Notes: a model not told the origin generated them from the sequence alone. A DNA stretch of 64,000 nt from Kiritimatiellia bacterium (GCA_040767085.1 JAXGPF010000003.1:64001-128000), one strand, 5' to 3'; counted from the stretch's first letter, positions 14,425 through 64,000 are shown. Numbers and translations are program-made.

Positions 14425-14620
14425 AATTTCTTTCTGCCTGGCCGGTGATATAGTTTCACCCAAGATATTGACATGATACCCTTTTATATCCAGTTGGTAA
14501 ATTGATTAAACATCTTAATTTTGGACGAATTCTCACACGCCTTTGCCTCCGGCAAACACATGTCACCTGCCAGATACCGCCATATCAACCGGTTCGGACA
14601 TGCCTGACAACCGGCAACCA

Positions 14621-37275: not shown

Positions 37276-40200
37276 TTATGGCTCGAATTCCGTCGGCGCC
37301 GATCCTTTCTCCAACTGCATGGCGTCCACCCAGACGGTGCCGTGCCCCCGCAATTGAAATTCCAGCCCGCACTTCCGGTAGGCGTTGGCCGGAATCGGCC
37401 CGGTTACCGAATACCGCTGCCACTCCCTGGTAACCTTCACCGTTTTCCATGCCTTAATCCATTTGTTCCCATCCCATTCCTTCATCCAGTGGCTGCCGAA
37501 CAAGACCGGCAAACCGTCGGTGTCGCCTTTCATGTAAATTGACCAGGTATAGGTTTCGGGCTGGGGATTTTGCGGCGCGCTGGCTACCAGGAATCCCGTG
37601 TAAGTGAGGGGACCGTCATCTTTACGATTGATAAGCTGCAAACATACCCGGCCATGGTAGGGATCTTTTTCCACTAGCGTCATGTTCGAGTTTTCATAAC
37701 CGATGACCGCATTCCCCGCCGGGATGAGATAGTCCGGCAAGCCCGGCAGGGTCGCTTCTTCAAAACTGGGGTTGGGCGCGACATTCTTCATGCCCGTGCG
37801 CCCAAAATAATCCACGGTCGGCGAGCGGGCCGGCGGCGGCGGCGTGGTTTCGTCCGGCGCGCTCCGGACCAGGATTTTCACCGGGCCGTCCTGTTTCAAG
37901 CCCGCCCCCAGGTTGTAGGCCCGGACGCCGAACGGCTCCAGGCGGTCGCTGAACGTCCCGCCGGACACCGTGCAAGTCACATTCGTGAACATGCGCTGGA
38001 CCACGCCGGATGCCGGCAGGCCGGATATGGTAAAATCAACCTGCGCCTGCCGCTCCAGGGTATTCGCGGCCAACAGCACTGTCCCGCCGGCCGGGTAACG
38101 GAACAACGCCGCCTGCACTGCCGGGAAAAGGTCTTTCTCCGGAACGAATTCCAAGGGGCTGTAGGCGATTTCCTGGGGCACGGGCGGTGCCAGCAGCGCC
38201 GGCGTCAGCACATTCAATTGTTCGACAAACGTCCGGATGGCATCCACCAGCAATTTGTGCTGCGGATAGCGGTAATATCCCAGGCCGCGCGCGCCATGGA
38301 TAATGGCCAGATAACTCTGGCACATCTGTTCCGCCGGCGTCGGCAGCCGCCGGTGGGTGGCCGACCAGTTGCTGCCCATGAGCGTAATCCAGGTCATTTT
38401 CCGCGCGGCATCCGCGCGTTGCCGGGTTTGCCGGACGATTTTCGACACGAAATTGACCGTGTTGCGGTCTTTCAGCGTGCCGTCCGGAATCCAGTACGGG
38501 TCGGTGCATAAAATGTCACACCAATCCGTCGCCTCCGCTCCCGGTGGAATGTGCGAGGAATACAGCGCCATCGTCGGGTGGTAACCGTCGGCCTCGTTGG
38601 TTTTCTTGTACAAATCCCGCCCCTGGACGAACATGTCGAATCCCGCGAACCCGGGCTCATCGAATGTTTCATAGGCCAGCATGCGGGGATGGTCCATTAC
38701 CGCCCGGATGCCCGCCAGGTATTCCGGCAAACTCGCCTGGTAAAAACTTTCATAAATGGCGTTGCGCTGCGCGCGGGTCAATTTTTTAAACGCTGGCCGG
38801 CTGTAATAATTCAGAGTGCTTTGCAGATCGTTGGCTGTGTAAAGCTCATCCGCCTGTTTGAGTTCGTCTTCCTCCAGATATGCGGATAAACCCGTGATTT
38901 TTTTCCGGGTCTCGGTCGTTTCAATAATATGCATCAAATACAAATCCAGTTCCGCCGCCAGCGCCAAAAACTCCGGCAGGCGCTCCGCGGCATTCCATGC
39001 AGCATATACATTGATGCCGGCAGCCTTGGCGGCGCGCATAAGGTGGGGAGTGCATTCGGCATAAATCCCCACCGGGAAAAAAGGCTGCCCGTCTTTTAAG
39101 AGGATGCCGTTACGCTGGTCAATTTTCCATTCATGGCCGGGCTTGGGCGCGCGTTTGGTCAGCCGGAGCGCCTTTTGAAACAGCGCCTGCCGCCCGGTGC
39201 GATCTTCCAGGACCAGTTCCAGCGCGCTTTCTCCCGGCGGCAGCCTCCCGAGTTCCACCTGGAAAAGATTTTCACCGGCAATGCGCTCCGCCAGGAACAG
39301 TTCGTTGGAGGCAGCGTCCCGCACCACCGCCTGCAACCCCGCCAGCGTTGCCGCGGGCAGCGTCACCCGGCATGCCAGACCGGCATGTTCTTCGGCAGTG
39401 TAATAATTGCGGTCGAAATAAGCGTCCAGCGGCGTCAATTGCTCCAGCCCGGTCAAGGCTGCCTGTTCTACCGTGCCCTTGGTGAAAGAATCCCGCAAGA
39501 TCACAGCCGCATCCCGCCGGCCCATGGCCGCCACCGGCACCGAAAGCCTGACATTCGACTGCCGGCCCGGCGCGACTCCCTGGCGGGTCGCGGCGACTTC
39601 CACCGGCGCGCCTTCCGCCGGCAAGTCCCGCACCGCGACATCGGCATACTCGCCGTTGGTGCCGCCGCACGAGATTTTGGCGAAGACATCGTAAAAAGTC
39701 CCCTCATCGTTGACATAAAAACTCTCGACCTTGACGTCATCCAGCTTCAGCCGGCAGCCCGGCTGGACGGCCAACCCTTCCAATCCGCGCAGTTCGCCAA
39801 ACGCTTCCGGCTCGTGAAAGGAATCCCGCACCGGGAACAGAGTGCTGGATTCACGCTTCTCGCCCAAACGCACGCCCTGCGAGTCGAATTCCGGAATCAT
39901 TTTCGTCCGGGTGATGTTGAAACTGAGCTGGCCGACCTTGCCCTGCTCCGACAACAGCTCCAGCGGGATGGCGATTTCCGCCGTCCATCCCCGTTCATGC
40001 TTCACCGCCGATGACAGCCAGACCGGGTTCCAACTCCGCTCCCTTTGCGATGCCGACCCGCTCCCGGCTGCCTTCTGCTCGGCCTTGATATTGTCGCAGT
40101 TCAGCATGAAATGGCAGTAATGATGCCGGGCGGGATCGGACGAAATAAAGATTTCCACCGAATCGTCGTTGCACACCGCCCCGTCACGGGTCTTCACCGT

Positions 40201-40494
40201 ATTCCGGTCAAACCCCGATTCCAGGTTGACGCATTCCACGCCGAAATACAGCCACTTGTCGTCGAATGTGATCTTAACCCGCGTATCATCGGTGGTGCGG
40301 CCCGCCTCACCATGAACCGTAAACGCGCCCAGCGGCTCGATCCTACCCCAGAATGGATCCCCCAGTTTGCCGTCCATGTGCAGGGCGTTCCAATTCGGCT
40401 GCCGCTTGAAGCGCACCGCTTCCACCGCCGGCCCCGCCACCGCCACGCTCATCAATCCCGCCATCAACAAGATGCCCGCCAGAATTTTCTGCAT
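37276..40494 (-). CDS. Paralog P4 (most divergent)
   Basis: DGKL.D..W, DDSVEIF, KRAPKPG.E.KIDQ, FDEP, TDPYWIP, AIIHGARGL, NPSFEE, DAMQLEKG. Confidence 0.8.
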   Translation of the reverse strand: MQKILAGILLMAGLMSVAVAGPAVEAVRFKRQPNWNALHMDGKLGDPFWGRIEPLGAFTVHGEAGRTTDDTRVKITFDDKWLYFGVECVNLESGFDRNTVKTRDGAVCNDDSVEIFISSDPARHHYCHFMLNCDNIKAEQKAAGSGSASQRERSWNPVWLSSAVKHERGWTAEIAIPLELLSEQGKVGQLSFNITRTKMIPEFDSQGVRLGEKRESSTLFPVRDSFHEPEAFGELRGLEGLAVQPGCRLKLDDVKVESFYVNDEGTFYDVFAKISCGGTNGEYADVAVRDLPAEGAPVEVAATRQGVAPGRQSNVRLSVPVAAMGRRDAAVILRDSFTKGTVEQAALTGLEQLTPLDAYFDRNYYTAEEHAGLACRVTLPAATLAGLQAVVRDAASNELFLAERIAGENLFQVELGRLPPGESALELVLEDRTGRQALFQKALRLTKRAPKPGHEWKIDQRNGILLKDGQPFFPVGIYAECTPHLMRAAKAAGINVYAAWNAAERLPEFLALAAELDLYLMHIIETTETRKKITGLSAYLEEDELKQADELYTANDLQSTLNYYSRPAFKKLTRAQRNAIYESFYQASLPEYLAGIRAVMDHPRMLAYETFDEPGFAGFDMFVQGRDLYKKTNEADGYHPTMALYSSHIPPGAEATDWCDILCTDPYWIPDGTLKDRNTVNFVSKIVRQTRQRADAARKMTWITLMGSNWSATHRRLPTPAEQMCQSYLAIIHGARGLGYYRYPQHKLLVDAIRTFVEQLNVLTPALLAPPVPQEIAYSPLEFVPEKDLFPAVQAALFRYPAGGTVLLAANTLERQAQVDFTISGLPASGVVQRMFTNVTCTVSGGTFSDRLEPFGVRAYNLGAGLKQDGPVKILVRSAPDETTPPPPARSPTVDYFGRTGMKNVAPNPSFEEATLPGLPDYLIPAGNAVIGYENSNMTLVEKDPYHGRVCLQLINRKDDGPLTYTGFLVASAPQNPQPETYTWSIYMKGDTDGLPVLFGSHWMKEWDGNKWIKAWKTVKVTREWQRYSVTGPIPANAYRKCGLEFQLRGHGTVWVDAMQLEKGSAPTEFEP

Positions 40495-40572
40495 GCGTTT
40501 TCTCCCTCCTGTCATCTGTCTGATTTCATCATGTGTTGCCTGCCGCGCCGGTCATCCCCTGCCCGTGTTAAT

Positions 40573-51458: not shown

Positions 51459-52502
51459 TCACTTCTTGAGCGTGCAGCACGTGTCTAGGCATAGCTCCAT
51501 TCCCGCCCTTGGTGAGGCCCCACGGCAAAGGTAACCGGCGCCAAAGGCGTCCGGTTGACCGCCTTGTTCGATGTTTTTTTCCATAAGCTCAAAAGTTATG
51601 CCATGCCTCTTAAATACCGGGTGTTCGGGTGGGTCGCCCGGCGCTATTTGAAAGCCGAGTTTACGGAAAAAGCTAATTGATGTATTTCGTGCAATGGTAT
51701 GAATCCGATGGCACATTCTGTCTGAGGAGATACGACATAGTTCGGCAACGAGACTCCGACCGACACCTTTGCGTTGATGGTTTGGAGCGACTGCCAGATG
51801 TCTCAGTTCAATTTCATTCCCGTTTGTCCATACTGCGACCAAGGCCCCAATTATCTGTTTGTTTTCTTTGGCCGCTAACTCAATTTTTTCACCGTCAATA
51901 TTGAAGTTGTTCCGTATATCACGGGGAAGACCGAGAGGCTGCCATAGGACACTCCAGAGAAGTTCATCGATTTCTGCGACGTTGCACGCTGTTTTCACAA
52001 TTTCAACAGATGTCTTGTTCGCTTTCTGACTGTCTCGTGTATGTAATTTTTTCTTTCCAGACCAGTACTTCAAACACTCACCTTCGCCAACATCCAAAAC
52101 ACACTCATCAAATATTTTATATCCTAAATGCTCATAGAATTGCTTTGACGGCAAAGATATGCTCAGACTGATCTCTGGAATCCCCTTTTTCATCGCTATT
52201 TGTTCAAGATTAGTCATTACGGATTCGCCGTATCCTTGCCGCTGATGATTGGGACGCACAAATACGCCGAGTATTTCAGAGCCTTTCAACGATCCGGTTG
52301 CCAGAATTGAAGCATCCCGTTCGGATGTAAGAACCAATATGTCGCCAACTGCACTCCGCTCGATAATGTTCTTCTCGGAATGGTGTTCTTTAAAGAATGC
52401 CACCGCACGTGGTGGATACACACCTGAATACGAAGCGTCAATAGTTTCGCAGATCATGCGGTGAAGAGCATGCAAATCAGTCCTCTTGAATGGACGAATC
52501 AT
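51459..52502 (-). CDS. Cassette: tandem (two-domain) GNAT acetyltransferase
   Basis: Two motif A copies ([22 protein letters not shown]); lower GC; ORF reads through the attC. Confidence 0.85.
51517..51572 (-). other. attC site, terminal (R' is GTGGGGC)
   Basis: ATCGAAC-aaggcggtcaaccggacgcc/ggcgccggttacc-GTG imperfect palindrome. Confidence 0.75.
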
Positions 52503-52528
52503 AGTTTTGACTTCCTTCACTACTTCTT

Positions 52529-52586
52529 GTCGAACGTCACCGTTCTCGCGCGGCTGTAAGCCGTCGCCAGGAACGGCTTGTTCGAC
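52529..52586 (-). other. attC site
   Basis: GTCGAAC...GTTCGAC with internal palindrome. Confidence 0.85.
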
Positions 52587-52591
52587 CGTTT

Positions 52592-53362
52592 CTATTCCAG
52601 GATAAACATCGGTTCTGCGTTCAAGTCGGCCAAGACCGAGCTGGCGGACGCCTCTTCCTCGACTGTTCCGGAAATCGCCAGCCATACAGAACCTTCTGCT
52701 CCGCACACTCCGCCTGCCGCAACCAGTTCTGCTCGTGCGCCAGTGAGAATCGTGCATGCCTCCAGTTCCGTTACAACTTCTCCTGAAACTGGAAGCATCC
52801 GTGCGCCGACCGCGTCAGGTGCATTCAGGCGTGCGGCGATGCTGCTCAATTCGGCAGAGACACGCTTTTCGAGTCCGACAGGCAGGATGAGGCGCACGCG
52901 CCTTCCAACAACGGCCTGCAGTGCCGCCACGATTGTGCCACCTTTCGGATGCCCGATCAGTATGCCAGCCTGTTTCCGCACAAGGTCAACGGCATTTGCG
53001 CCCTTCAGAATGACATCACCTTCCTTCAGGGCATCAACAACGTCGAATATGGTCTTGCCCTTCAACCAAGCGCCTTTCTGGATCACAACATCACCCGGGA
53101 ATTGGCTCTCGTCTGGCAACCGACCGGTATCCGTCGTCTTCTCGCATGGTGGCAACGTGATTCCGCGGAAGAATCGTTGACGTGAGAACCCCTCCGCATT
53201 CCCGCATGCCGACAGCAACTCCTCGGCCACATATCCATTGGTCGTTCCAGCGACAACAACGACTGTGCCAGACTGAAGGGCCGTTCTGATTGCCGGGTGA
53301 CCCGTAAGGGCCTTCGCGATCAGTCGCTTTCCAGCAGCAGGGGTTACTATGGTCTGTATCAT
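52592..53362 (-). CDS. Cassette: conserved hypothetical protein
   Basis: [43 protein letters not shown]. Confidence 0.75.
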
Positions 53363-53383
53363 TTCATTTCTCCTATCTGTCGA

Positions 53384-53779
53384 ATCGGGATAGGGGGGGC
53401 GCCTCGCGGCGCCGCCCCTCCCACACCACCCGGCATGCGGATCACGCACCAGGCGATTCCGTGCGGTAACATATGCAACAAAGGTAGCCCTATCTCAACG
53501 AAATGTCGAGTCGGCAGCGCAATGCCCAGCCCGTCGCAACCCGGAAGTATGCCAGCCGTACAGGTAAGCCGCCAGTGCGCCGATTATCCGGCACATGCGG
53601 CATCCGCGAGTGGCTCGTCATCTCCCGTATCCTCGCCCTGATTCTCTCTGACTTTCGTTCTGATGGGCTGCCTCCCCATCCCGCCTCGCGACGACACAGT
53701 TGCCCTTTCGCTTCCCTTCGGCTTCTCCTTCACCTGGCGTGGGTACTTGCACCCACAAGTTACGTGCCATCCCCGGCAC
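53384..53779 (-). mobile_element. Internally deleted group IIC intron (396 bp)
   Basis: 5' GTGCCGGGGATGGCACG domain I stem; DV with CGC triad (GAATCGCCTGGTGCG...CGCATGCCGGGTGGTGT); DVI ending CCTATCCCGAT; IEP domain X relics ([31 protein letters not shown]). Confidence 0.88.
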
Positions 53780-53831
53780 GGTCCGGTTCAGCGGCGCGCT
53801 TTGGCGCGTCCGTTGCGACCGATTGTTCGGC
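53780..53831 (-). other. attC site with R' split by the intron relic
   Basis: GCCGAAC...gcgccaaagcgcgc...ggacc|GT; the remaining TCGAC lies beyond the intron. Confidence 0.8.
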
Positions 53832-54108
53832 TGTCTGTTTCTACAAAACGTCCCGCGGCATACCGGTGAAGAATGCTAGCCATGAGCGTCTGATAGGGCA
53901 GGCCATCCTCAACGGCAATCGCCTGGATTTCCTCCAAATCCTTGGATGAGATGCGAATATTGACACGCCTATTTTTGGCCTGCGTGTTCCGGGCGTAACG
54001 CACATGCCGGGCAATTTCTCGCTCACGGTTTGCAACTGGTTTCCACTCTCCGCGCTCGAAGGAGTCAAGAATATCCTGTTCTTCCTTATCAAGTTTCATT
54101 TTCTGCAT
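53788..54108 (-). CDS. CopG/BrnA-like antitoxin
   Basis: LDKEEQDILDSFERGEW...RVNIRIS..DL..IQ..A..DGLPYQTL. Confidence 0.85.
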   Translation of the reverse strand: MQKMKLDKEEQDILDSFERGEWKPVANREREIARHVRYARNTQAKNRRVNIRISSKDLEEIQAIAVEDGLPYQTLMASILHRYAAGRFVETDSRTIGRNGRAKARR

Positions 54109-54382
54109 GGTGCCCTCCCAAATATTCACGTGTTGCTTTTCGGCTGGGTATGATGGTCTTTAGAAATCGCCCGTCGTCGGATTCCGCGAACGGAACCACA
54201 TAGGCATATTCTCCGATGCGAACGACCAGAATCTGTTGTCCTGGATACCGTTCCTGATTCGGATGTTGGTAGACATCCAGAAGATCACCATTCTCGATAT
54301 GCATCACAACCTGCTCGAAGCTGATGTCACGTTCAACCTTGAGTTGCTCGTTTTTCTCTATGCTCCAGCGGTAGTAAGGCAT
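54089..54382 (-). CDS. BrnT-like toxin
   Basis: W..EKNEQLK.ER.ISFE, HPN..RYP.Q, FLKTIIPSRKAT. Confidence 0.85.
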   Translation of the reverse strand: MPYYRWSIEKNEQLKVERDISFEQVVMHIENGDLLDVYQHPNQERYPGQQILVVRIGEYAYVVPFAESDDGRFLKTIIPSRKATREYLGGHHAENET

Positions 54383-54388
54383 GATTGA

Positions 54389-54417
54389 ATGCTATCACAT
54401 TGTGTGCCTTGCGGCAA
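54389..54417 (-). promoter_or_regulatory. Sigma70 promoter of the TA cassette (probably leaderless mRNA)
   Basis: TTGCCG-17 bp-TAGCAT, 6 bp before the ATG. Confidence 0.65.
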
Positions 54418-54431
54418 CACATTTCTTTTTT

Positions 54432-54491
54432 GGCGAACGTCGCAAATCTGCCTCGGAGCGAAGCGACGTAAAATGCAGGCGCTGGTTCGGC
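54432..54491 (-). other. attC site
   Basis: GCCGAAC...GTTCGCC. Confidence 0.8.
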
Positions 54492-54501
54492 ATTCCCGTG
54501 C

Positions 54502-54960
54502 TTAGGGGACATACCACAGGCCGTCTGTGATGTTCGAGCCCCCCAAGTTCCCAAGCTGCGAGTCGTCCTTCCCTTTTACGAAGCCGATGAACCCGACGCG
54601 CAGCGTCGGGTGTAGGGCCACATAGGTTCGATCAGGCGAGACCCTGATGCGATCTGGGTTCATGTTGCGGATTGCCGCAGGAACATCCTCCCCGAGTGGC
54701 TTCCGCTTGCGGTCCCACATGACATCGGATCCGAAGGCCGTTGACGGCTGTGCCCATGCGTCCCAGAAGTGACGGTAATTCTGCGCCATTGAGCGACAGG
54801 CAGCGAGCAATTCGACATGATCCGCATTCGTGATGCGTTCGCGCTGTGCTTCGCGATCCCGCACGGCGTTGTTGGCGGTCATGTAGCACCACAGCACGAG
54901 CAGGAGGGGGGCGGCGCAGATGCCAATCCCGACGAGCCATTTCTGGTATCGCTTCTTCAT
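54502..54960 (-). CDS. Cassette: membrane-anchored hypothetical protein
   Basis: N-terminal hydrophobic helix; bounded by attC sites. Confidence 0.7.
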   Translation of the reverse strand: MKKRYQKWLVGIGICAAPLLLVLWCYMTANNAVRDREAQRERITNADHVELLAACRSMAQNYRHFWDAWAQPSTAFGSDVMWDRKRKPLGEDVPAAIRNMNPDRIRVSPDRTYVALHPTLRVGFIGFVKGKDDSQLGNLGGSNITDGLWYVP

Positions 54961-54966
54961 CTCAAT

Positions 54967-55037
54967 GCCGAACGTCACGCCTCAACGGACGGCGAACCCG
55001 CCGCGGGTGAGCCGTACGGTGGAGGCGCTGGTTCAGT
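54967..55037 (-). other. attC site
   Basis: ACTGAAC...GTTCGGC with palindromic core. Confidence 0.8.
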
Positions 55038-55406
55038 GAATTCATTGCTGTGTTTTGACAGGTAAAGCATGACGATGATTCCAAGTATTGTTCCGATGGG
55101 GATGCTGAACAGCCACAGGACGGCGAGTATCCACATGGCCGTCTTGAACCATGCGGCTCGGTATCTCGCGCCAAAGAGCGCAACGAGGAGTAATACGGCC
55201 CCGATGAGCGACAAGACCATGCCTCCTGCGGTCGTATAAAGCGCAAGACTGATGTCAGATGCCAGAGCTTCGGGCTGGGCTTCGCTGTTCTTAGATAATT
55301 CGGCAAAAGCCCGCAGCATTCCGACGACTGTTCCTGCGATTCCGATCAAGAACCCAAATTGCAGGATTACACCCCATAGAGCCAGTTGCTTTCCGTTCTC
55401 TTTCAT
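54975..55406 (-). CDS. Cassette: small membrane protein with MotA/TolQ/ExbB channel-like segment
   Basis: GIAGTVVGMLRAF...LASDISLALYTTAGG. Confidence 0.7.
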   Translation of the reverse strand: MKENGKQLALWGVILQFGFLIGIAGTVVGMLRAFAELSKNSEAQPEALASDISLALYTTAGGMVLSLIGAVLLLVALFGARYRAAWFKTAMWILAVLWLFSIPIGTILGIIVMLYLSKHSNEFTEPAPPPYGSPAAGSPSVEA

Positions 55407-55415
55407 ACTCTCCTC

Positions 55416-55450
55416 ACCGAACAGTATTATTGAGCCTACTTCGCGAATAC
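55416..55450 (-). other. attI-like site 1
   Basis: Non-palindromic CGAAGTAGGCTCAATAATACT-GTT heading a cassette run; 24 bp identical to 63965-63988. Confidence 0.65.
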
Positions 55451-55457
55451 TGACGGG

Positions 55458-55493
55458 GCGCATGTGATTATGTATTTATAAATCACATGTGCG
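55458..55493. terminator. Hairpin after the restriction endonuclease gene
   Basis: gcgcatgtgatt...aatcacatgtgcgc. Confidence 0.45.
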
Positions 55494-55499
55494 CTATTG

Positions 55500-58103
55500 T
55501 CAAATGCTTAATCCAGCGCCGGATGGTACATTCTCAAATACCTTTAGCGCATCCCGCCGCGTTATGACCGTGTCGTAAAGACCGATGTCCTCGCCCTCGT
55601 GTTTGTTGATGCCGGTGTATCTCAGGCTGGAGTCTTCGTAACGCTTGAACTTGTAAACCGCGTCGTTCATCAGGGCGCTGTTGAACACGCCCAAGCTGAC
55701 CAGCAACTCGAAGTCCTTGACGGTGAGCCCCGTGACTTTCCTGAAGAGGCCGGGTTCAAGTTGTGTAATGACGTCCTTCAGGGTCCGCTCGCGGTAATCG
55801 GTCAGGTACATGAAGATGGGAATCCGCGTGGCGAATTTGATGAGCTTCTCCTGAATCTGTTTGCGCAGGCTCTTGTATTCCTTCTCCTCCTGCGAAAGCT
55901 CCTTCTTTTCTTCCGCGGAAAGCTTCTCGTCGTTGGCTTCCTTGCGCGCTTTCTTGACGGCCTCGGACTTGTTGATGATCGTCGCGATGTCTTGGTTCAG
56001 ATTGCGGAAACCCTCGATGTTCATCAGGGCGTCCATCGCCTTCTTATCAGCCATCAGGCGGCGCAAGGTGTCGTTATCCACATTGACCAGGAGGGCGCTT
56101 TCCCAGCGCCGCGCCAGCAATGTGGCCGTCGTACCGCTCATGGCCATGTCGAGAATCCCGGCGGCATCAATCTGTTTCATGGAACTGCCGTCGTAAGCCA
56201 GCACCGGCAGGAAACTGATGAACTCCTCGACCTTCTTTTCCGGGTTGACCTCATTCAAGTTCAACCGGCAACTGTAATCGGCAATCTGGCGCAATGCCCG
56301 ATCGGGGGCGAAGTCGAAGACGTAGCATTCTTCCTTGATGATCTGCTCGGTGTTCGGAGATGCGCCGTCCGGGTTGCGCACCGTCCAGGGGGATTGCACA
56401 CGGAACGCCGCTTGAAAATATGTTTCCGGGCTCGACGAGTTGCGCAAAATGAGAATACCCGTCCACGGTTTCACTGTCACTCCCGTGGTCAATTTGCCGC
56501 AGGAAAGCGTGATGGTCCTGGTGGCGAGCGGATCGTCCATCGCTTCCAGCACAGGCGGCAAGGCCGCGGCGCCGATCCCGGCGGCGCTTCCCGCCGCCAC
56601 GATGATCTTGTAGTCGTGATAGAAGCGGTTTTGCCTCTTCGCCAGCAGGTTTCGCATGGCATGACAGGCCGCCACGCTGGGCAAAAACCAGAAGGAATGC
56701 GAAAGCACTCCCAGGAGCCGGACATCCGAGAACGGCATCGGCGGCTTTTGCGCGCCCAGTTTCAGGTTGTCCACACTGGCCGGCATGAACGCGCCGCGAA
56801 TCAGGTCCAGCCATTTCTGCACTTCTTCCGCGTACCTGAATTTCGCCTTGTCCCCAATGCCCTCGGCGGAGAAGAACACATTCAAATCGAACTCATTGAA
56901 CTCACCCTGCATGGCGATATCCCGGATCGCGTCGGGCAGTTGGTATGTCAAAAGCACCATTCGGGGCAGCGGGGCATATGGGTTGTTTGGGCCGTTCCAA
57001 TACCGCTTGGCGCGCTGCTCGTCGGAATACGTCCAGTTGTAAATCTGCTCTTCAATGAACTCGCCCGACGCAATGGCCCGGAACGGCGTGCCGGACAGGT
57101 AAAGATACCCGTCCGTGGTGATCGGCATGATCGTTTCATCAAAATCCTCGATGCCTTCGCCCTCGGCGAATTTTCGTTCCTTTTCATCCTCCGACTCGAA
57201 AAGCTCCTTTGCGTTTTCGCGCCAGGCTCCGTAATGGTACTCGTCCAGAATCACGCAATCCCAATGCGTGGTGTGGACCCATTCGTTCTTGGTCTTGATG
57301 CCGCCGGTGCTGGGGTTGCGGCCCAGGTAGTCCTGGAATGAGCCGAAGCAAACAAAAGGCTTTTTCTTGTCCGCTTGCTCATAGGTCAGGCCGCCCGGCT
57401 TGATGAACTGCCAGCCCCGGAAGTCAACATGGCATTTCAAGTCTTCTTCCCAAGCGCTTTGAACGGCGGGCTTGAAGGTCAGAACCAGCACCTTTCGCCA
57501 GCCCATTTTTTTCGCCAACTGATACGCAGCAAAAGTCTTGCCGAAACGCATCTTGGCATTCCAGAGGAAATGCGGCGGCTTGTCCCGGTTGCTTTTGTCA
57601 TTGCGCCAACTGGCGAAATAGGCGGCCGTCTTCTCGACCGCCGCGACCTGTTCCGGGCGCATTTGGAAATCCAGCGACCGATTTTCCTCGTTCAATTGCC
57701 CGGTCCGGACTGCGATGATCGCCGACTTGACTTGGGCCACCGTGCAACGGAACCATTCTCCGTCGGGGTTCTTGATGCCGTTAACCCGCAGCATCCGGTG
57801 CACGTCGTGGTCTGTGAACACCGTCCCGTCATTCCGCATGGCGGATTCTTCGAGAACGATCCGGTACGGCGGCCGGCCGGGCTTCTTTGTCGGATACTGC
57901 TGGGCGACGCGGCCTTGGGCATTCACGGTTGTGTAGCCGATTTTGAGCAGCCCCGCATATTGTGGGTTCGTGTCCTCGTAGGCGTAGATTGTCGGCCTCG
58001 ATGCCGGGCGCGGAGGAAAGAACTCCGGTTCATCCGCAAATGAACGCGAATGAACGCCAATAAGGGAAGAGCCTTTCTTTGATTCGAGTCTAATCGCGCT
58101 CAT
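55500..58103 (-). CDS. Restriction endonuclease: GIY-YIG/T5orf172-like domain plus SF2 helicase
   Basis: IYAY...LKIGYT...EWF; WNAKMRFGKT, DEYH, LSGTP, YFQAAFRVQ. Confidence 0.85.
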   Translation of the reverse strand: MSAIRLESKKGSSLIGVHSRSFADEPEFFPPRPASRPTIYAYEDTNPQYAGLLKIGYTTVNAQGRVAQQYPTKKPGRPPYRIVLEESAMRNDGTVFTDHDVHRMLRVNGIKNPDGEWFRCTVAQVKSAIIAVRTGQLNEENRSLDFQMRPEQVAAVEKTAAYFASWRNDKSNRDKPPHFLWNAKMRFGKTFAAYQLAKKMGWRKVLVLTFKPAVQSAWEEDLKCHVDFRGWQFIKPGGLTYEQADKKKPFVCFGSFQDYLGRNPSTGGIKTKNEWVHTTHWDCVILDEYHYGAWRENAKELFESEDEKERKFAEGEGIEDFDETIMPITTDGYLYLSGTPFRAIASGEFIEEQIYNWTYSDEQRAKRYWNGPNNPYAPLPRMVLLTYQLPDAIRDIAMQGEFNEFDLNVFFSAEGIGDKAKFRYAEEVQKWLDLIRGAFMPASVDNLKLGAQKPPMPFSDVRLLGVLSHSFWFLPSVAACHAMRNLLAKRQNRFYHDYKIIVAAGSAAGIGAAALPPVLEAMDDPLATRTITLSCGKLTTGVTVKPWTGILILRNSSSPETYFQAAFRVQSPWTVRNPDGASPNTEQIIKEECYVFDFAPDRALRQIADYSCRLNLNEVNPEKKVEEFISFLPVLAYDGSSMKQIDAAGILDMAMSGTTATLLARRWESALLVNVDNDTLRRLMADKKAMDALMNIEGFRNLNQDIATIINKSEAVKKARKEANDEKLSAEEKKELSQEEKEYKSLRKQIQEKLIKFATRIPIFMYLTDYRERTLKDVITQLEPGLFRKVTGLTVKDFELLVSLGVFNSALMNDAVYKFKRYEDSSLRYTGINKHEGEDIGLYDTVITRRDALKVFENVPSGAGLSI

Positions 58104-58951
58104 TCGCGTTTCCCTATCCTCGACTGCTTTCCCGCCGGCGGCAGGAAGTTCTCGCCGGTCACTACCTTGCGCCCCGTCTTCTGCTCCAACTCCCGCCGCG
58201 CCCGTTTGGCGATGCGTCCGCCTTTCTTCCCGGCCTCGGCATTTTCGCCCATGCCGATCGCTTCCACGCTTTCGGCGATCTGGCGGGTGGACAATTCCGC
58301 CAGCGCGGTGAAGATCAGCTCCGCCTCGCTCATGTGATCACGCAGGTTCTGCGCCTTGAGCCCTTTAATAGCCTTATGCTTCTTGACCGAAACCCCGCTC
58401 CATTCCTGGTGGATGATATTGGTCAGGATGGAATATTCCTCCTCGCCTTTGATCTCGTGGTCCTGCCAATAATCGGTGAGCTTGTTGCGGGTTTCCTGCC
58501 CCATCATCCGCTGCTGAATCCATTTCTCGCTGCGGCCGTGCTTCTTCCAGTATTCCCGTGCCCGGTCCAGCGACCGCACCGGGTCGCTCATGTCCTGGAT
58601 GCGCTCATACCCTACCTTGGCCAGCCAGAGTTTGATCGGTTCTGCCCTGGGACTGGGGACGGATTGAATAATCCGCAGAAGTGTTTCAGGGTCAGCAACA
58701 TCCGTCAGATAGGATTTTCCGTCAGCCGCAGGCAGTTTCAGTCGGTTACATTTTGTAACCGACTCACTTCCCTCGCTTTTAAGCCGGTTTTTCAGGACTT
58801 TCCAGTAATTGCGGGCGGCCTGATAGTCCGGTTGCTGGATCAGCGCCGCGACGATGTCCACCACGGAGAAATACCAGGTCTCCGACTTCTTGTCGTAAAC
58901 GCGCCGGATTTTGAAATCCTCAAAGACAGCCAATGCTTTTTCGTTTGTCAT
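58100..58951 (-). CDS. BRO-N domain protein
   Basis: IRRVYD...WYFSVVDIV, LLRIIQSVPSPRAEP.KLWLA, NLRDHM. Confidence 0.85.
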   Translation of the reverse strand: MTNEKALAVFEDFKIRRVYDKKSETWYFSVVDIVAALIQQPDYQAARNYWKVLKNRLKSEGSESVTKCNRLKLPAADGKSYLTDVADPETLLRIIQSVPSPRAEPIKLWLAKVGYERIQDMSDPVRSLDRAREYWKKHGRSEKWIQQRMMGQETRNKLTDYWQDHEIKGEEEYSILTNIIHQEWSGVSVKKHKAIKGLKAQNLRDHMSEAELIFTALAELSTRQIAESVEAIGMGENAEAGKKGGRIAKRARRELEQKTGRKVVTGENFLPPAGKQSRIGKRE

Positions 58952-58967
58952 GGTTGACCTGCCGAAT

Positions 58968-59152
58968 TATCCACAGATGACGCAGATTTTTGCAGATTAT
59001 TTTCGGTGGATCCGGTATCTGCGTTAATCCGTGGAATCAGCGAATTATTCATCTGCTTCATCCGGAATGATTATCCGCAGATGGCGCAGATTTTCGCAGA
59101 TTATTTTCGGCGGATTCCGGTATCTGCGTTAATCTGTGTAATCTGTGGATTA
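58968..59152. repeat. Tandem pair of 9-bp-period CGCAGAT inverted-repeat units
   Basis: atccacagatgacgcagatttttgcagatt...atctgcgttaatccgtgg, repeated twice. Confidence 0.85.
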
Positions 59153-60758
59153 TTATGCCTGCTCATCGACCCCGCTTTCCGCCTTGTCATTATCCGCTGG
59201 CATTGGGCGGACAATGGAGGAAATAAAATCAATCTCAGCCTGCGTTAGCTTGAAATGCTTGTTAAGTTTGTCATCAGTCCATATTTCTGTCATTGGAAGT
59301 TGAGGAACGAAGGCGAACCGCTCCTTTGTGATATGTTGCGTGTTTTTCCGCAATCCAACCAAAAATCGGAAGAAGTGGGTTCGCATGTACGCAGCAAGGT
59401 GTTCTGCCTCGTCCTTTGTCTTGTATGACCCAATGACGATGTAAGTTTCCGTACAGGCACTGGGCGGGCTTGCCACAATAGGTTTGCCCATAATCATTCG
59501 AGGGTATTCCCGGGCTTCGCCGCCTTCGGACTTCCAGCGTGATCGTAACCCACATATGATGTCAATAACCTTCCAAAGATCAATCATATCGACGCCAACA
59601 GTAATGTCTGATTTCGGATCTTTTGGCCCTACTCGCCATTTCTGCCAACGCAAAATAATTTGATCACCTTGTCCTTCTGAGGCCGTCACGTAAGTTCTAA
59701 GTCCAAAATGGTTTTTGTCTAGCAGACACTTGCTCGCTCATGCGACAAAGAAGGATCTTTTCTTGACAAGGACCCTTCGTCCAAATGATTGGGAAACAGC
59801 CTTATTGAAGCGAGCAAACGTATGAAAGTCGGAAACTCGTTGAGAGGTAAGCGTAGTCGAAACAACGTCGTTCATCGTTATGCACGTTCGTGACTTCGAG
59901 CAAGGTCCACGAGTAATCACGCTCCCATAAGAAATAACATATTCCATCCGCTATAACCTTGACACCGGGAAATACGTCGGAAGCAATCGGATAATCAACA
60001 AGATGAGAGATACGTCGGTCGTGTAGCATTGCATCTCGGAACTCGTCAAGACCTTTGCCGCCAGCGAACCAGCGTGAGGGTATTATCATGGAAAGGAAAC
60101 GAGGGTTCAGCTTCTTGGCTTGCTCAACGAAGCGATTGTAGATGGGGGATGCCCCTGTGCTTTCGCCTGCATCACTCAATTGGTACGGTGGATTACCGAT
60201 AATTACATCAAATTTCATTTTGAAAATTCCCTCATGTTTGTCGGTGTGGATGAACTCATATGCATGGCTTTCATACTCTCGCCCGCGGTCGTACTCCTCC
60301 TTGCTGGCGCGACAAAACACACAACGGCCATTTACCCATGTGTGTTCCACTCGCCCGAAACGGATGTTGCCGGCGGGCTTGTCAAACAACTCACAGACGG
60401 AATATTTGCCGTTGGCGGTCTTGGAGCAATAGACGGAGCGGCGCGACAGCAGAGCGGTCAGTTCCGTAATTGCGAGCCCGTAGAGTTGATTTTTGAAGAT
60501 GTGGTTCATGCGCTGCAGGCGGTCAGGAATCTGGGCCTCCAGCCCCTTGTCCAGCCGCTTGGCGATCTCGCGCAGAAATACGCCCGACTTGCAACCGGGG
60601 TCAAGAAAGGTGGCTGTCTTGTCGCTCCAAAGTTCCTGCGGCAGCAGGTCCAGAATCCGGTTCACGAGTTGCGGCGGCGTGAACACCTCGTCACTACTCA
60701 AGTTGGCGATACAAGACAGCACATCCGGATTATAGTTGTCTGTGTTCATCTGCGTCAT
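59153..60758 (-). pseudogene. Eco57I-type adenine methyltransferase with specificity region, multiply frameshifted near 59.5-59.95 kb
   Basis: [41 protein letters not shown]-terminal CTETY...FFRFLV..RK.TQ...WTD in another frame. Confidence 0.8.
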
Positions 60759-61194
60759 CCGCAGACCTCCTCTGTTTCAACCGCAGATAGCGCAGATGAA
60801 CGCAGATTGTAAACAAAGCGCTTGTACTCGAGTCGGATAGCGCCAAAGTTGATCAGCAGAGCTTTGTGCAGCCTGGATGCTTTCAGGTAGTTGATCACTT
60901 GTGCCTCCTCCGTCCCGAAAGCTGCTTCAGCGCCTTGAGTTCGACAATCACCGCTCCGGAGCAAACGTAATCGGCTTTGTAGAACGTGTTCAATGGCTTA
61001 CCGCGATAGAACACCGGCAGTTCCTTTTCGCGTTCGTAAGGGATGCCCCTGAACCGAAACTCGCGTTCCAGCGCTTCCTGATAGACTGCTTCCAGAAAGC
61101 CAGACCCAAGGTCTGAATGCACGGCCATAGCTGCTCCGATTATCGCGTATGTCTCCGCATCTTTATTACCGTTATCTGCGTCAATCTGCGTCAT
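60755..61194 (-). pseudogene. GxxExxY protein (PD-(D/E)XK-like) with a 1-bp frameshift in a G run
   Basis: LGSGFLEAVYQEAL, ADYV...IVELKA, then EEAQVINYLKAS...LLINFG in the next frame. Confidence 0.85.
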
Positions 61195-61852
61195 CTGCGG
61201 ATTCCTTTTTCCCCAACTCCAGGAAATGCATGGGCGGATATTCGCGGATTGGCGTTGGGATGAAGACGTCTTCCCCCAGATCGGAGAAAAGCGGCAGTTC
61301 CTTCATGCCCTCGTGCGTCAGCAGTCCGTGAAACGTGAAGTCCCTCCGTTTGAGCATGCTGCCGTTGACCGGCGACCATTCAGAAAATACGATATAATCC
61401 GGTTTTTTGCCGACTGTTTTCAAGGTCAGGGCGTCGCCCCAGATGATATTGCGCCCAAGGATGAAACGGACCGCCTCGCGGCATTTGTTCTTGGCGCGGT
61501 CCTCGAACAGCCGGGAATAAAAGTCACAATCGAACACGCCAAAAAGCCGGTGCCGGCACTGGTGGACATTGTCCTCCAGGATGTCAATGCCGTAGATCGA
61601 AGAGACGGCCAGGACGGCATAACGCTCGAAGTCCAGTTGCGACTTGCCGTAGCGCTTTTCCACCACGGCGAGTTTCCGTTCCAGAATGGCCGTCAGGAAA
61701 TTCCCATTGCCGCAAGCCGGTTCGAGGAAGCGGGAATCAATCCGGTCCGTTTCCTGTTTCACGAGGTCGAGCATGGCGTTGACCTCGCGTTTGCCGGTCA
61801 ACACCTCGCCATGCTCGGCGACCCGCTGTTTCGATATGACTTGCGATTCCAT
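61181..61852 (-). CDS. Short SAM-dependent DNA methyltransferase of the RM cluster
   Basis: SKQRVAEHGEV.T, FLEPACGNGNFL, IYGIDILEDNV, NIIWGDAL. Confidence 0.85.
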   Translation of the reverse strand: MESQVISKQRVAEHGEVLTGKREVNAMLDLVKQETDRIDSRFLEPACGNGNFLTAILERKLAVVEKRYGKSQLDFERYAVLAVSSIYGIDILEDNVHQCRHRLFGVFDCDFYSRLFEDRAKNKCREAVRFILGRNIIWGDALTLKTVGKKPDYIVFSEWSPVNGSMLKRRDFTFHGLLTHEGMKELPLFSDLGEDVFIPTPIREYPPMHFLELGKKESADDAD

Positions 61853-61936
61853 CTGTGATTTATTTTCGTGGCCTGACTCACTCAGAAGCGCCATTTCACG
61901 TATCACCAGCAGGCTCGATGCTCTTGTTCGAGCGCT

Positions 61937-62277
61937 TTATACAAACGAGTCGCAATACTTCTGCCATTTCTGAGCCAAGAACTGCAACCTGCCTTGCTTG
62001 TAGACCGCCTTTTTGCTGTTCGTCTGTTGCGCCATATGAATGACATCGAGAAGAGTGTTTGCTTCTTTTTTAGAAATGTCGAGCTTGTAATATTTCTGTG
62101 ATGACATACCCACCTCTAACACCGGCTGCGGAATTGGGGCCTGTTTCAGTTTCGGCACAATAACTACGCGAGGTATTATGACTCTTTCGTTAAGGACGAT
62201 AAAACGATATCATCCAGCAAGTCCTCTGCGATCACGTTGGGTTGGGAAATCAGAGCTTCATATTCTTTTCTGGTCAT
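61937..62277 (-). pseudogene. Cassette: hypothetical protein with a 1-bp frameshift; its attC is truncated at ~61905-61932
   Basis: ATG at 62277 joins the 61937-62158 frame if one T is added; CTCGAAC R'' follows the stop and complements the cassette's GTTCGAG core. Confidence 0.55.
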
Positions 62278-62296
62278 CTTTTATCCTTTTGCTCGA

Positions 62297-62434
62297 ATCA
62301 GGATAGAGGGGCGACTCGCGACTGCCTCCCCACCCCGCCTCGTGACGACGCAGTTGCCCTTTCGCTTCCCTTCGGCTTCTCCTTCACCTGGCGTGGGTAC
62401 TTGCACACCACAAGTTACGTGCCATCCCCGGCAC
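62297..62434 (-). mobile_element. 138-bp mini group IIC intron derivative (5' domain I part fused to DVI)
   Basis: First ~110 nt nearly identical to the 5' part of the 53384-53779 element; ends CCTCTATCCTGAT; no DV or ORF. Confidence 0.85.
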
Positions 62435-62498
62435 GCTCAGGCGCACCGGACGCCTGAAGCGACAGCGGAAGGCGGTACGGTGACGCCTGTTGTTCGGT
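62435..62498 (-). other. attC site with R' split by the mini-intron
   Basis: ACCGAAC...gcctgagc|GT; TCGAG lies beyond the element. Confidence 0.78.
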
Positions 62499-62502
62499 TC
62501 GC

Positions 62503-63138
62503 TCATTCCATCAAGATTGCTGCAAGACCTTTTTCAGGATCCAGTATGAGTCCCGCCAGAGCGAGGAGCAATGCCAAACCCTGGCAGATGACGAGTTTGT
62601 TAGTCCAATAGCGCCGTTGCGCCTTCAGGTGCAGAATCCCGTGCTCGGTTTGCTTCACCATGCTGAAAAAGCTATGACTGGCAGTTCCAAGCAGGGCTAC
62701 CCTGCGAGCAGAGAGTTCGCGAGCTCTGTTTGCCCAATCAGTCGGCAGCGGTTGAACCAATTCGTCGGGCGGAGGCTGGCGGATTGAAGCGAGGAGAAGA
62801 CAAATTGCCTCAGTCATGCTTTCGAGATAAGCGTGTGCTGAGGCCGCTTCCATTTGGCGAACATCGGCGACGTCTTTGTCAGACTTGAGGACTTGGAGTA
62901 TCCGCTTCGCCTGTGCACTCGAAACGCTCTGCCAACTGACATCGGCTGCGCGAGCCACCGCCTGATTCGCCTCCGTATGGGCGATTCTCAGGTCAGCAAT
63001 CAGTTTTTCCTTCTTTTCGATTCTACTTTCAAATAATAGAGGCACGACTGAAAAGCCGACCGTGGCAACGAGCAAGAGCGCCGCGGACGCTACGAGGCAC
63101 AGAATGTGGATCAATGGGATTGCTTCGAGTGCTGTCAT
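62503..63138 (-). CDS. Cassette: hypothetical protein with two TM helices
   Basis: Hydrophobic N- and C-terminal segments; between attC sites. Confidence 0.65.
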   Translation of the reverse strand: MTALEAIPLIHILCLVASAALLLVATVGFSVVPLLFESRIEKKEKLIADLRIAHTEANQAVARAADVSWQSVSSAQAKRILQVLKSDKDVADVRQMEAASAHAYLESMTEAICLLLASIRQPPPDELVQPLPTDWANRARELSARRVALLGTASHSFFSMVKQTEHGILHLKAQRRYWTNKLVICQGLALLLALAGLILDPEKGLAAILME

Positions 63139-63157
63139 CCTTTCATCTTTCTCTTGA

Positions 63158-63217
63158 ACCGAACGTCGCAAATCAGCGGCGCGGTTTACCGCGTACGCTG
63201 GATTTGTCTTGTTGGGT
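63158..63217 (-). other. attC site
   Basis: ACCCAAC-aagacaaatccagcg...cgctgatttgcgac-GTTCGGT. Confidence 0.85.
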
Positions 63218-63943
63218 TTCTCCATCTGTTGCGGTTGGAATGGCCTTGATTGCCTTCACACGTTGATCGTACTCGTACAGCGTGACCTTTATCTTCTGTC
63301 CTGTGTTGTCGCCTATGTATTGCGCGGCCGCGGCAAGCATGACGGGGAACACCTTTCTCAGGTCACCGGAAGAACCTGTGCTGAAGATGTCTGTCTTCCA
63401 AACCTGTTTCTCCTCTTCTGCCTTGCGGTACGCCGCAAGATCTAAAGCGTTGAGAGAAATGTAGCGGGTGAAGGTGACGTATGTTCCTGAGTATTGTCTG
63501 GAACCTACCACTCCATAGGTTGGGGTATGTGTTGTCGTCCCGGAATAGGTTGCGCTGTTTCCGTAGGAATACAGGGAACCGTATGTGTGCGACGAGGAGA
63601 CTCCAGTTTGCCCGTAAACGGGAGTCGAGTAGCTGTATTGATGTTGGGAAGGGTCAGAAATGTCGTAGTAGAGAAAGATGGCAATGTCAGCTTCGTCAAG
63701 ACCATCGGTCTTGATGAAGCCCTTCTGCTCAAGGGCACGATGGGTGTATGTTGCGAACTCCTGAAACTGGAGATCACCAGGGTTCACGCCCTTCTTTCCT
63801 GGAAACAAGAAGTACTTCCGGGCTGTGGGTTGGCCAGAACTGATGGAATCGATTCTTACATCGTAATGCGGCATCGTGGCGCAGCCAGAGCAAACCAGTA
63901 CAATCATCATTGGTACGATGGCCCATGACATGAAGTTCTTCAT
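63173..63943 (-). CDS. Cassette: lipoprotein (DUF4136-like)
   Basis: Lipobox VCSGC; RALEQKGF, ADIAI, VWK...S.GSSGDLR. Confidence 0.7.
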   Translation of the reverse strand: MKNFMSWAIVPMMIVLVCSGCATMPHYDVRIDSISSGQPTARKYFLFPGKKGVNPGDLQFQEFATYTHRALEQKGFIKTDGLDEADIAIFLYYDISDPSQHQYSYSTPVYGQTGVSSSHTYGSLYSYGNSATYSGTTTHTPTYGVVGSRQYSGTYVTFTRYISLNALDLAAYRKAEEEKQVWKTDIFSTGSSGDLRKVFPVMLAAAAQYIGDNTGQKIKVTLYEYDQRVKAIKAIPTATDGETQQDKSSVRGKPRR

Positions 63944-63960
63944 TCTCTTGTCTCCTCAAA

Positions 63961-63990
63961 CCCAACAGTATTATTGAGCCTACTTCGTGA
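63961..63990 (-). other. attI-like site 2
   Basis: Same 24-bp sequence as site 1, heading the first cassette; intI would lie beyond the window. Confidence 0.65.
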
Positions 63991-64000
63991 AATCTAACTG

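Follow-up and report, generated by a model that had tools for sequence, protein, structure and literature searches.

The stretch of DNA analysed here, 64,000 nt long and called the window below, raises the question of what the non-coding element is that separates a gene cassette from the attC-like hairpin upstream of it, and how it came to lie there in the direction of the cassette genes. The reading proposed here, to which a probability of roughly 0.85 is assigned, is that this element (copy A) and a shorter one in the same array (copy B) are fossils of a group IIC intron lineage that retrohomes into the top, coding-sense strand of attC, between the GT and the T of the R' core.

The minus strand is the coding strand of all genes that flank copy A. 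These neighbours encode a BrnT/DUF4258-like toxin, a double GNAT protein, a MotA-like fragment, methylase fragments and a PD-(D/E)XK protein, a mix that is typical of cassette arrays. From 51522 to 64000 the minus strand of the array carries six or more attC-like sites, scored with a covariance model (R1) and listed here with the cassette that precedes copy A:

51522-51572, minus strand: attC-like site, unoccupied, the best-scoring in the window and the last detected (R1, 44.7 bits, E = 1.2e-9)
52529-52586, minus strand: attC-like site of the downstream cassette, R'' GTCGAAC and R' GTTCGAC (hairpin scan; R1, 35.4 bits, E = 3.9e-7)
53778-53831, minus strand: attC-like site upstream of copy A (R1, 34.8 bits, E = 5.6e-7)
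53841-54382, minus strand: two-gene TA-like cassette just upstream of copy A (a 97-aa DUF4258/BrnT-like protein and an 83-aa partner with no Pfam match)
54967-55037, minus strand: attC-like site, unoccupied, same array (R1, 17.1 bits, E = 0.029)
62433-62498, minus strand: attC-like site upstream of copy B, ending ...CTGAGCGT (R1, 17.6 bits, E = 0.021)
63158-63217, minus strand: attC-like site, unoccupied, same array (hairpin scan; R1, 28.2 bits)

The strict attC pattern RYYYAAC...GTTRRRY has no match within the array, and its single pair in the window (34765-34819) lies outside it. The cores in the array are non-canonical (GCCGAAC, GTCGAAC, GTTCGAC), so hairpin scans and the covariance model were used instead. 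R1 was home-made from 49 target sites (5' exons) of related introns, the aadA1 attC among them and none from the window, and was run on the whole window with filters off as a substitute for the curated IntegronFinder attC model. Six matches had E < 0.05; they lie from 51.5 to 63.2 kb and share the minus strand, and the next match has E = 0.11. The flanks of the relic, which the original prediction took to be attC sites, score as attC-like under this home-made model of the relatives' sites. The site at 53831-53778 is a 54-nt imperfect, bulged hairpin with R'' GCCGAAC that ends ...GGACCGT, and, folded as DNA, it resembles the aadA1 attC in having an R box, an unpaired spacer and an L box with a bulge. 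It starts 9 nt after the TAG of an antitoxin-like gene (54092-53841, minus strand). The flanks have the AAC and GTT cores of attC, lie just 3' of an ORF and fold into an imperfect hairpin whose extrahelical bases fall on the R''-L'' arm. Downstream, the next attC-like site begins with GTCGAAC (52586-52580), which is complementary at 7/7 positions to GT plus TCGAC.

The array continues past the end of the window, where GTTAGAT is found at 63998-63992 on the minus strand. No IntI1 homologue is present in the window at E <= 1e-10, and the array is either an integron with its integrase beyond 64000 or a CALIN. Within it, about 7 kb (55040-62296) has no match to the attC model. This part contains Eco57I-type methylase pieces, a PD-(D/E)XK_3 protein, a Bro-N protein and an 867-aa T5orf172/ResIII helicase-like protein, with a degenerate R''-like CTCGAAC at about 61931 inside it; it may represent an element inserted in a cassette, or one cassette of unusual size. 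TA cassettes beside the intron are seen in several related loci as well (L058, L059, L012, L076).

Copy A and its parts lie as follows:

53384-53779, minus strand: copy A, an internally deleted group IIC intron relic of 396 nt (nhmmer with a full-intron profile, blastn against plasmid introns, alignment)
53664-53779, minus strand: 5' fragment of domain I, intron positions 3-119 of 1839 (nhmmer, E = 1.3e-21)
53536-53647, minus strand: remnant of the IEP gene (maturase region), intron positions 1384-1501 (nhmmer over the whole window, E = 0.0013)
53384-53529, minus strand: last part of the IEP gene with domains V and VI, intron positions 1686-1839 (nhmmer, E = 9e-19)
53379-53383, minus strand: 3' exon TCGAC, the first bases of the downstream cassette (the relatives all diverge right after ...CCCGAT)

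Copy A runs in the same direction as the cassette genes, between the hairpin at 53831-53778 and TCGAC. The upstream junction on the minus strand reads ...ccggacc/GTGCC, with GTGCC at 53779-53775, and the downstream junction reads CCCGAT/TCGAC, with CCCGAT at 53389-53384 and TCGAC at 53383-53379. Both junctions, and the match of TCGAC to the downstream cassette's own R'' (GTCGAAC), are as the original prediction had them on this strand; its span of 53379 to 53831 takes in hairpin, relic and TCGAC together, the relic proper being 53384-53779. The element is non-coding, begins GTGCCGGGGATGGCACG and terminates ...CTATCCCGAT at 53384, and its first GT (53779-53778) is common to, or indistinguishable from, the GT of the attC core. 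TCGAC is followed by a ribosome-binding site and an ATG at 53362, which opens a 256-aa ORF (53362-52592).

A full-intron nhmmer profile, built from 15 full-length relatives and 1,839 positions long, was searched over the whole window and matches only at the places of copies A and B; no full-length intron copy is found by this profile within the 64 kb. By such scores the match of copy A to group II introns is far beyond chance, and the element reads as a three-piece remnant. Lost are most of domain I, domains II and III and the reverse transcriptase, just as had been predicted for the relic; of domain I, only intron positions 3-119 are kept. The middle piece is a frame-shifted part of the C-terminal quarter of the IEP and contains no open gene. 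The window was searched with 24 intron proteins by tblastn and with an HMM of 14 family proteins against 1,834 six-frame pieces of the window. The matches are weak (E = 0.03-0.3), yet they are the top two of the 1,834 pieces, both fall in the middle of copy A, and they are collinear (profile positions 337-360 and 422-445 of 447). In a pairwise alignment this middle could be taken for reduced domains I-III that include a J2/3-like motif, but by profile and protein searches it is a piece of the IEP gene.

Domain V of a group II intron is a helix of about 34 nt with a 2-nt bulge and a catalytic triad, which is CGC in class C; in domain VI an A is bulged out 7-8 nt before the 3' end, and the last bases of the intron are AY. 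In copy A, domain V (about 53457-53425) has 13/13 standard pairs, a 2-nt GC bulge and CGC at the triad position, and two of its pairs are changed on both sides, in a compensatory manner, relative to an E. coli plasmid intron (L002). A fold of the last 77 nt places domain VI at 53422-53384, with a bulged A at 53391, 7 nt from the end, and a terminal GAU; the 3' ends of the relatives are all ...UAUCCCGAU. Both domains are intact. The predicted assignment to group IIC is supported by the CGC triad and by the match of relatives to Rfam family RF02001.

Among plasmids, blastn matched the last 80 nt or so of copy A in 167 records at 76-88% identity, none of which covered 80% of the query. In the three records that were opened, the match lies directly downstream of an annotated group II reverse transcriptase/maturase (ltrA) gene. 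The aligned copies have domains V and VI in common, end in CCCGAT and diverge afterwards. Rfam found nothing in the window at gathering scores, and nothing at E <= 10 over 53200-54000 (801 bases), RF02001 and RF01998 included. The domain V/VI model RF00029 scores only 40-45 bits on full-length relatives, or misses them; it found one of the three plasmid introns, at 41.2 against a cut-off of 40, while RF02001 was found in all of them. Because the model barely reaches this lineage, the silence of Rfam on the window is a limit of sensitivity rather than evidence against an intron. RF02001 (group-II-D1D4-3) did match 7/7 ORF-less relatives tested; its absence from copy A fits the loss of most of domain I and of domains II-III there. 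In consensus scans of 53200-54000, nothing resembled a promoter, and the single terminator-like site matched what shuffled sequence gives.

The behaviour of the lineage was read from its relatives. Genome contigs were scanned once for a pattern common to the plasmid intron and to copies A and B, AGCCGAAGG-N7-AAGGGCAA-N7-GTCRCGAGGC, which yielded 110 related stretches from 83 genomes; flanks of 10 kb came with 80 of the stretches. None of the 110 comes from the window's own genome. All but 11 of the stretches (99/110) are from Pseudomonadota, mostly Beta- and Gammaproteobacteria, with some from the PVC group and other phyla; the closest are from an Auribacterota MAG (L063, 84.6% identity over 117 nt) and a Planctomycetota MAG (L106, 80.3%). 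Taken with a glycoside hydrolase cluster and four large paralogues elsewhere in the window, these two closest relatives make a host from the PVC group seem likely.

The 5' exon ends in CGT in 95/102 relatives (57 ACGT, 30 GCGT), and T is the first base of the 3' exon in 27/28 relatives whose 3' end is defined (TAGGCC, TAGCCG, TAGATG and so on). Since the 3' exons begin with T after CGT, the insertion site is the R' core, GT/TRRRY, with the consensus RCGT/T. Complementarity between R'' and R' at the occupied sites of the relatives averages 5.04 of 7 positions, against 4.96 with permuted 3' exons, and is uninformative because the 3' half of R' comes from the next cassette. When 100 relatives were folded, 85 had a hairpin of at least 8 bp beside the junction. 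At the window's site a hairpin ends 5-8 nt before the junction, and the family has IBS1 = (A/G)CGU and IBS3 = U; this is insertion directly after a stem-loop with a short IBS1 and a 1-nt IBS3. The loop GGGC-ACGU-GACC, kept in 59/62 relatives, is the predicted EBS1 for an (A/G)CGU exon end, and it is a candidate only, given that EBS1 and IBS1 are nearly invariant among the relatives and so show no covariation. At least two relatives (L078, L083) are behind hairpin-plus-T-run terminators.

Several intron copies occur in one array in L042, L055, L067 and L041. In L042 (about 1994-2090), the CCCGAT that ends one intron is followed at once by the start of another, which may have used domain VI of its predecessor as a target hairpin. 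Genes for IS110-family transposases lie antisense just upstream of the intron-occupied attC in L023 (8826-9818) and L059 (8606-9791), and these may be IS1111-type elements that target attC and use the same sites.

The preferred reading of copies A and B, retrohoming into the top strand, can be set out as a sequence of events. The intron RNA would have been reverse-spliced into single-stranded attC top-strand DNA just after the hairpin, in keeping with the biology of endonuclease-less class C introns as outlined in the accessible part of a review (PMC4424553), and cDNA would then have been made by the intron's own reverse transcriptase. Short pairing may have guided the insertion, with the candidate EBS1 loop GGGC-ACGU-GACC, from the portion that copy A has lost, as the guide. 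The reverse transcriptase, domains II-III and most of domain I, with the predicted EBS1 loop in it, would have disappeared in later deletions, and two GT units would also have been lost at the 5' junction.

It is at this 5' junction, and in the comparison with copy B, that retrohoming leaves something to explain. Copy B is much shorter:

62297-62434, minus strand: copy B, a mini-relic of 138 nt (self-blastn, alignment, nhmmer)

In a self-blastn, 62322-62449 is 93% identical over 128 nt to the 5' part of copy A. Copy B consists of intron positions 3-117 (the 5' 115 nt) joined to the 3' half of domain VI, with nhmmer E-values of 5.6e-22 for 62434-62320 and 0.027 for 62333-62297. It follows the hairpin at 62498-62433 and is itself followed by TCGAG, which matches the R'' (CTCGAAC, at about 61931) of its own downstream cassette. 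At the 5' junction of the relatives, the exon CGT is followed by the intron sequence GTGYG-CC-GGGCAT-GG-CRCG. Copies A and B both read C-GTG-CC-GGGGAT-GG-CACG, with 4 nt of the GT+GTGTG run gone, so that neither has the GUGYG 5' end of a group II intron. The missing nucleotides are the exon GT and intron positions 1-2, and the profile alignment begins at position 3. The original prediction had allowed that the element shares its GT with the core and that GT units were lost, and this is what the comparison gives: 4 nt of exon GT plus GTGTG, kept by 95/102 relatives, are absent here. The same 4-nt lesion is seen in 0/102 relatives with a recognisable 5' end.

Copies A and B thus carry the same lesion at two different attC-like sites and have many lineage-specific substitutions in common. 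It is not parsimonious to have retrohoming happen twice independently and decay follow in identical form, and retrohoming plus decay leaves something unexplained here. The identical lesion may come from slippage that happened in parallel in the (GT)n run, from gene conversion, or from the integrase cutting at an inner G/T, the last being the alternative named in the original prediction.

The last of these options can be extended to a rival account in which the integrase, rather than retrohoming and slippage, spread the relics and trimmed their 5' GT units. After insertion the core would read G/TG/TG/TG/CC, and a cut by IntI at an inner G/T would join any attC to TGCC. The relic would then ride as the leader of the downstream cassette, and repeated rounds would ratchet the GT run down to CG/TGCC. 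Consistent with this, both copies with the minimal junction C-G-TGCC are behind two unrelated attC hairpins, and the identity between copies A and B begins exactly at the trimmed junction. However, the R'' of the relic's own downstream cassette is matched by TCGAC in one case and by TCGAG in the other, so the relics sit at two authentic cassette starts that differ, as insertion, and not co-transfer, would have it. Mini-relics in other genomes (L044, L089, L100) keep the full ACGT/GTGTG, which argues against a general integrase ratchet, and the register of IntI cleavage is set by the R box. Spread by integrase is therefore judged unlikely. The wider claim that an attC occupied by a sense intron stays competent for recombination, with IntI cutting in G/TG/TG and spreading relics as cassette leaders, and with the identically trimmed 4-nt junctions as its footprint, is taken to be somewhat more doubtful still.

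The decay of copy A bears on a second alternative, that it still works as an ORF-less intron, with a maturase from elsewhere in the genome splicing it, and perhaps mobilising it, in trans. Of the 29 relatives with both ends defined, 12 are ORF-less (617-886 nt) or miniature (188-310 nt), namely L023, L029, L037, L040, L041, L044, L052, L055, L067, L076, L089 and L100, and the lineage seems rich in non-autonomous derivatives. Group II introns lacking an ORF are called rare in bacteria, where they usually coexist with related full copies, in the part of the review that covers them (PMC4424553). Like the ORF-less and fragmentary introns described there, copy A has lost its IEP and kept its intron ends; unlike them, it is a three-piece remnant rather than the product of a clean ORF deletion. 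Splicing in trans would fit the intact domains V and VI with their compensatory changes, the commonness of ORF-less relatives, and the usual coexistence with full copies. Against it, about 1,260 nt are gone, comprising most of domain I (with the predicted EBS1 loop) and domains II and III, what lies between the ends is a frame-shifted piece of a protein gene and no ribozyme, the 5' GUGYG is damaged, and there is no signal for RF02001 or RF01998 at E <= 10. A working copy A is thus very improbable. On the proposed reading, copies A and B are most likely inert: with the ribozyme core, EBS1 loop, protein and 5' splice site gone, they should neither splice nor move. The R' core at the relic junctions reads GTGCCGG in place of GTTCGAC, and this should cripple integrase recombination at the junction. 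Any effect of the relics is likely to be passive, with the leader of the downstream cassette's transcript lengthened by about 400 nt (copy A) or about 140 nt (copy B).

The sense orientation has to be established separately, because either strand of attC reads ...AAC...GTT...; the strand was for that reason tested in four ways. In plasmid pEC732_IMP14 the intron is in the top strand of the aadA1 attC, with the orientation fixed by blaOXA-10, aadA1 and qacEdelta1, and the top strand of this attC has two single-base bulges (C and A) on its 5' arm. Among the 85 relatives with a hairpin, bulged bases are mostly on the 5' arm in 70, mostly on the 3' arm in 7 and equal in 8, so 70/85 match the aadA1 attC top strand in polarity. 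The ORFs of 85 aa or more lying no farther than 1.5 kb from 25 bounded relatives number 185, and 44 of them were identified by Pfam at E <= 1e-5. Of these 44, 35 are on the intron strand (one being the maturase of another intron) and 9 on the opposite strand, 5 of the 9 being transposase ORFs. Near-full-length IntI1 homologues (local tblastn, 42-64% identity) are present in nine of the relatives' loci. In eight of the nine (L059, L040, L061, L072, L077, L038, L018, L009), intI lies upstream of the intron on the opposite strand, the canonical divergent arrangement, and in L004, the sole exception, it is on the intron strand. Sense orientation at the R' core, as first proposed for copy A, is accordingly borne out in the window and among the relatives by bulges, flanking ORFs, the position of intI and the covariance model.

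Classical group IIC-attC introns use the bottom strand, where they enter at R'' (TTGT/T) and run against cassette transcription, according to PMC3001079 and PMC7923331. Neither the window copies nor the relatives insert in this way. It could still be argued that copy A is a classical intron of the S.ma.I2 type in cassettes that are inverted, or that the hairpin is the bottom strand, for ...AAC...GTT... is found on both attC strands and the cores alone cannot tell them apart. Classical introns of the S.ma.I2/Kl.pn.I3 type, represented here by L114 (after blaIMP-4) and L116 (after arr-2), are like the window family in being class C, in using an attC hairpin and a 4-nt IBS1, and in inserting at GT/T. 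They differ in their 5' end (GTACGCCC) and in domain VI, and theirs is the mirror image of the family's target: the exon begins ...TAACG and ends TTGT/, and its bulges lie on the 3' arm. The IEPs of these classical introns share 44.5-46.5% identity with that of L002 and form a separate clade, and the stop codons of the upstream genes in the window precede R'' on the intron strand. The classical reading is therefore extremely improbable.

The two kinds were compared further in a quick maximum-likelihood tree of 24 intron proteins with few references, in which the relatives stand for the relic, itself without an IEP. In this placement, a check that the original prediction had suggested, the family forms a clade apart from L114 and L116: 14/15 family members fall in one clade (SH-aLRT 92), and L114 plus L116 in another (SH-aLRT 98). 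The remaining family sequence, L072, comes from a 3.7-kb composite, forms a long branch and is unreliable. The family's neighbours or sister group in this tree are terminator-targeting introns of S. fredii, B. vietnamiensis and Ralstonia. An independent origin of the sense lineage and the classical IIC-attC introns is only suggested by these protein comparisons. Terminator-targeting IIC introns such as that of B. vietnamiensis plasmid pBVIE01 (L003) resemble the family in lying in sense orientation just after a stem-loop at the end of a gene; they differ in that their target is a plain terminator that lacks R''/R' cores and the two 5'-arm bulges.

The junctions, the orientation and the IEP clade of the relatives together support top-strand insertion at GT/T as a targeting mode distinct from the classical one. 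Tabulated across the family, the junctions and orientation come to 95/102 with CGT, 27/28 with T and 35/44 flanking ORFs co-oriented. The relatives do not insert antisense at R''; a few lie after plain terminators.

Last among the alternatives, an origin other than an intron, with the likeness arising by chance in a structured regulatory RNA or in a cassette that has no ORF, would sit well with the absence of a match to any Rfam family, but with full-intron nhmmer scores of 1e-21 and 9e-19 and 82-88% identity to domains V-VI of annotated introns, it is effectively refuted for copy A by plasmid blastn and nhmmer, and hardly worth entertaining.

The closest documented system is L002, a group IIC intron in a class 1 integron on the IncC plasmid pEC732_IMP14. 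It has the 5' region of the scan pattern and the hairpin-CGTAAC start in common with copies A and B; its domains V and VI are those of copy A, with 82.5% identity over the last 80 nt or so, and both end in CCCGAT. It is likewise inserted at GT/T of the R' core, in the attC top strand and in cassette direction (aadA1 attC, ...AAGCGT/intron/TAGATG). Unlike the window copies, it is full length (1,838 nt) and has a 444-aa IEP and an intact GTGTG. With both ends homologous and insertion at GT/T of R', copy A belongs with this sense, top-strand, attC-targeting type.

Insertion in the top strand and in the same orientation is not without precedent. One "unusual" intron in the same orientation as the cassettes, from Enterobacter cloacae (Rodriguez-Martinez et al. 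2012), is cited in the accessible text of PMC7923331, and another, from Shewanella algae, is left unexplained in that of PMC9229058. The L002 type is probably the same as these. In the portions available of papers from 2010 (PMC3001079), 2021 (PMC7923331) and 2022 (PMC9229058), insertion in the same orientation is mentioned just as single oddities. Full-text searches yielded no account of a lineage-wide top-strand specificity, and Rodriguez-Martinez et al. (2012) or the subscription literature may hold one. Copies A and B are new, decayed members of a known but little-documented kind of intron.

The relatives suggest a separate lineage of mirror-image specificity, for the top strand, the R' core and the sense orientation, and this lineage-wide behaviour is a more interesting result than the fossil element. 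A sense intron can splice out of cassette transcripts and so need not block cassette expression. Given its place one base from the integrase crossover point, such an intron could affect the freezing or rearrangement of cassette arrays. For annotation, the Rfam domain V/VI model is at or below threshold for the lineage, so routine annotation misses such introns unless a reverse transcriptase gene is present.

Elsewhere in the window, a gene for an ISL3-family transposase (63-1313) lies between copies of a 57-nt repeat (1-57 and 1267-1323), which is also found at 22943-22999. A 300-nt stretch (54-353) has a 100% identical duplicate about 21.7 kb away (21730-22029), which suggests two or more copies of one insertion sequence. 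The minus strand also encodes four paralogous proteins of about 1,060-1,090 aa (11200-14463, 24904-28122, 29977-33159 and 37276-40515), with a CBM9-like domain in the one of the four that was scanned. These paralogues lie within a cluster of glycoside hydrolase genes that includes GH106-like, GH127, GH20-like, BNR sialidase-like and GlcNAc 2-epimerase genes.
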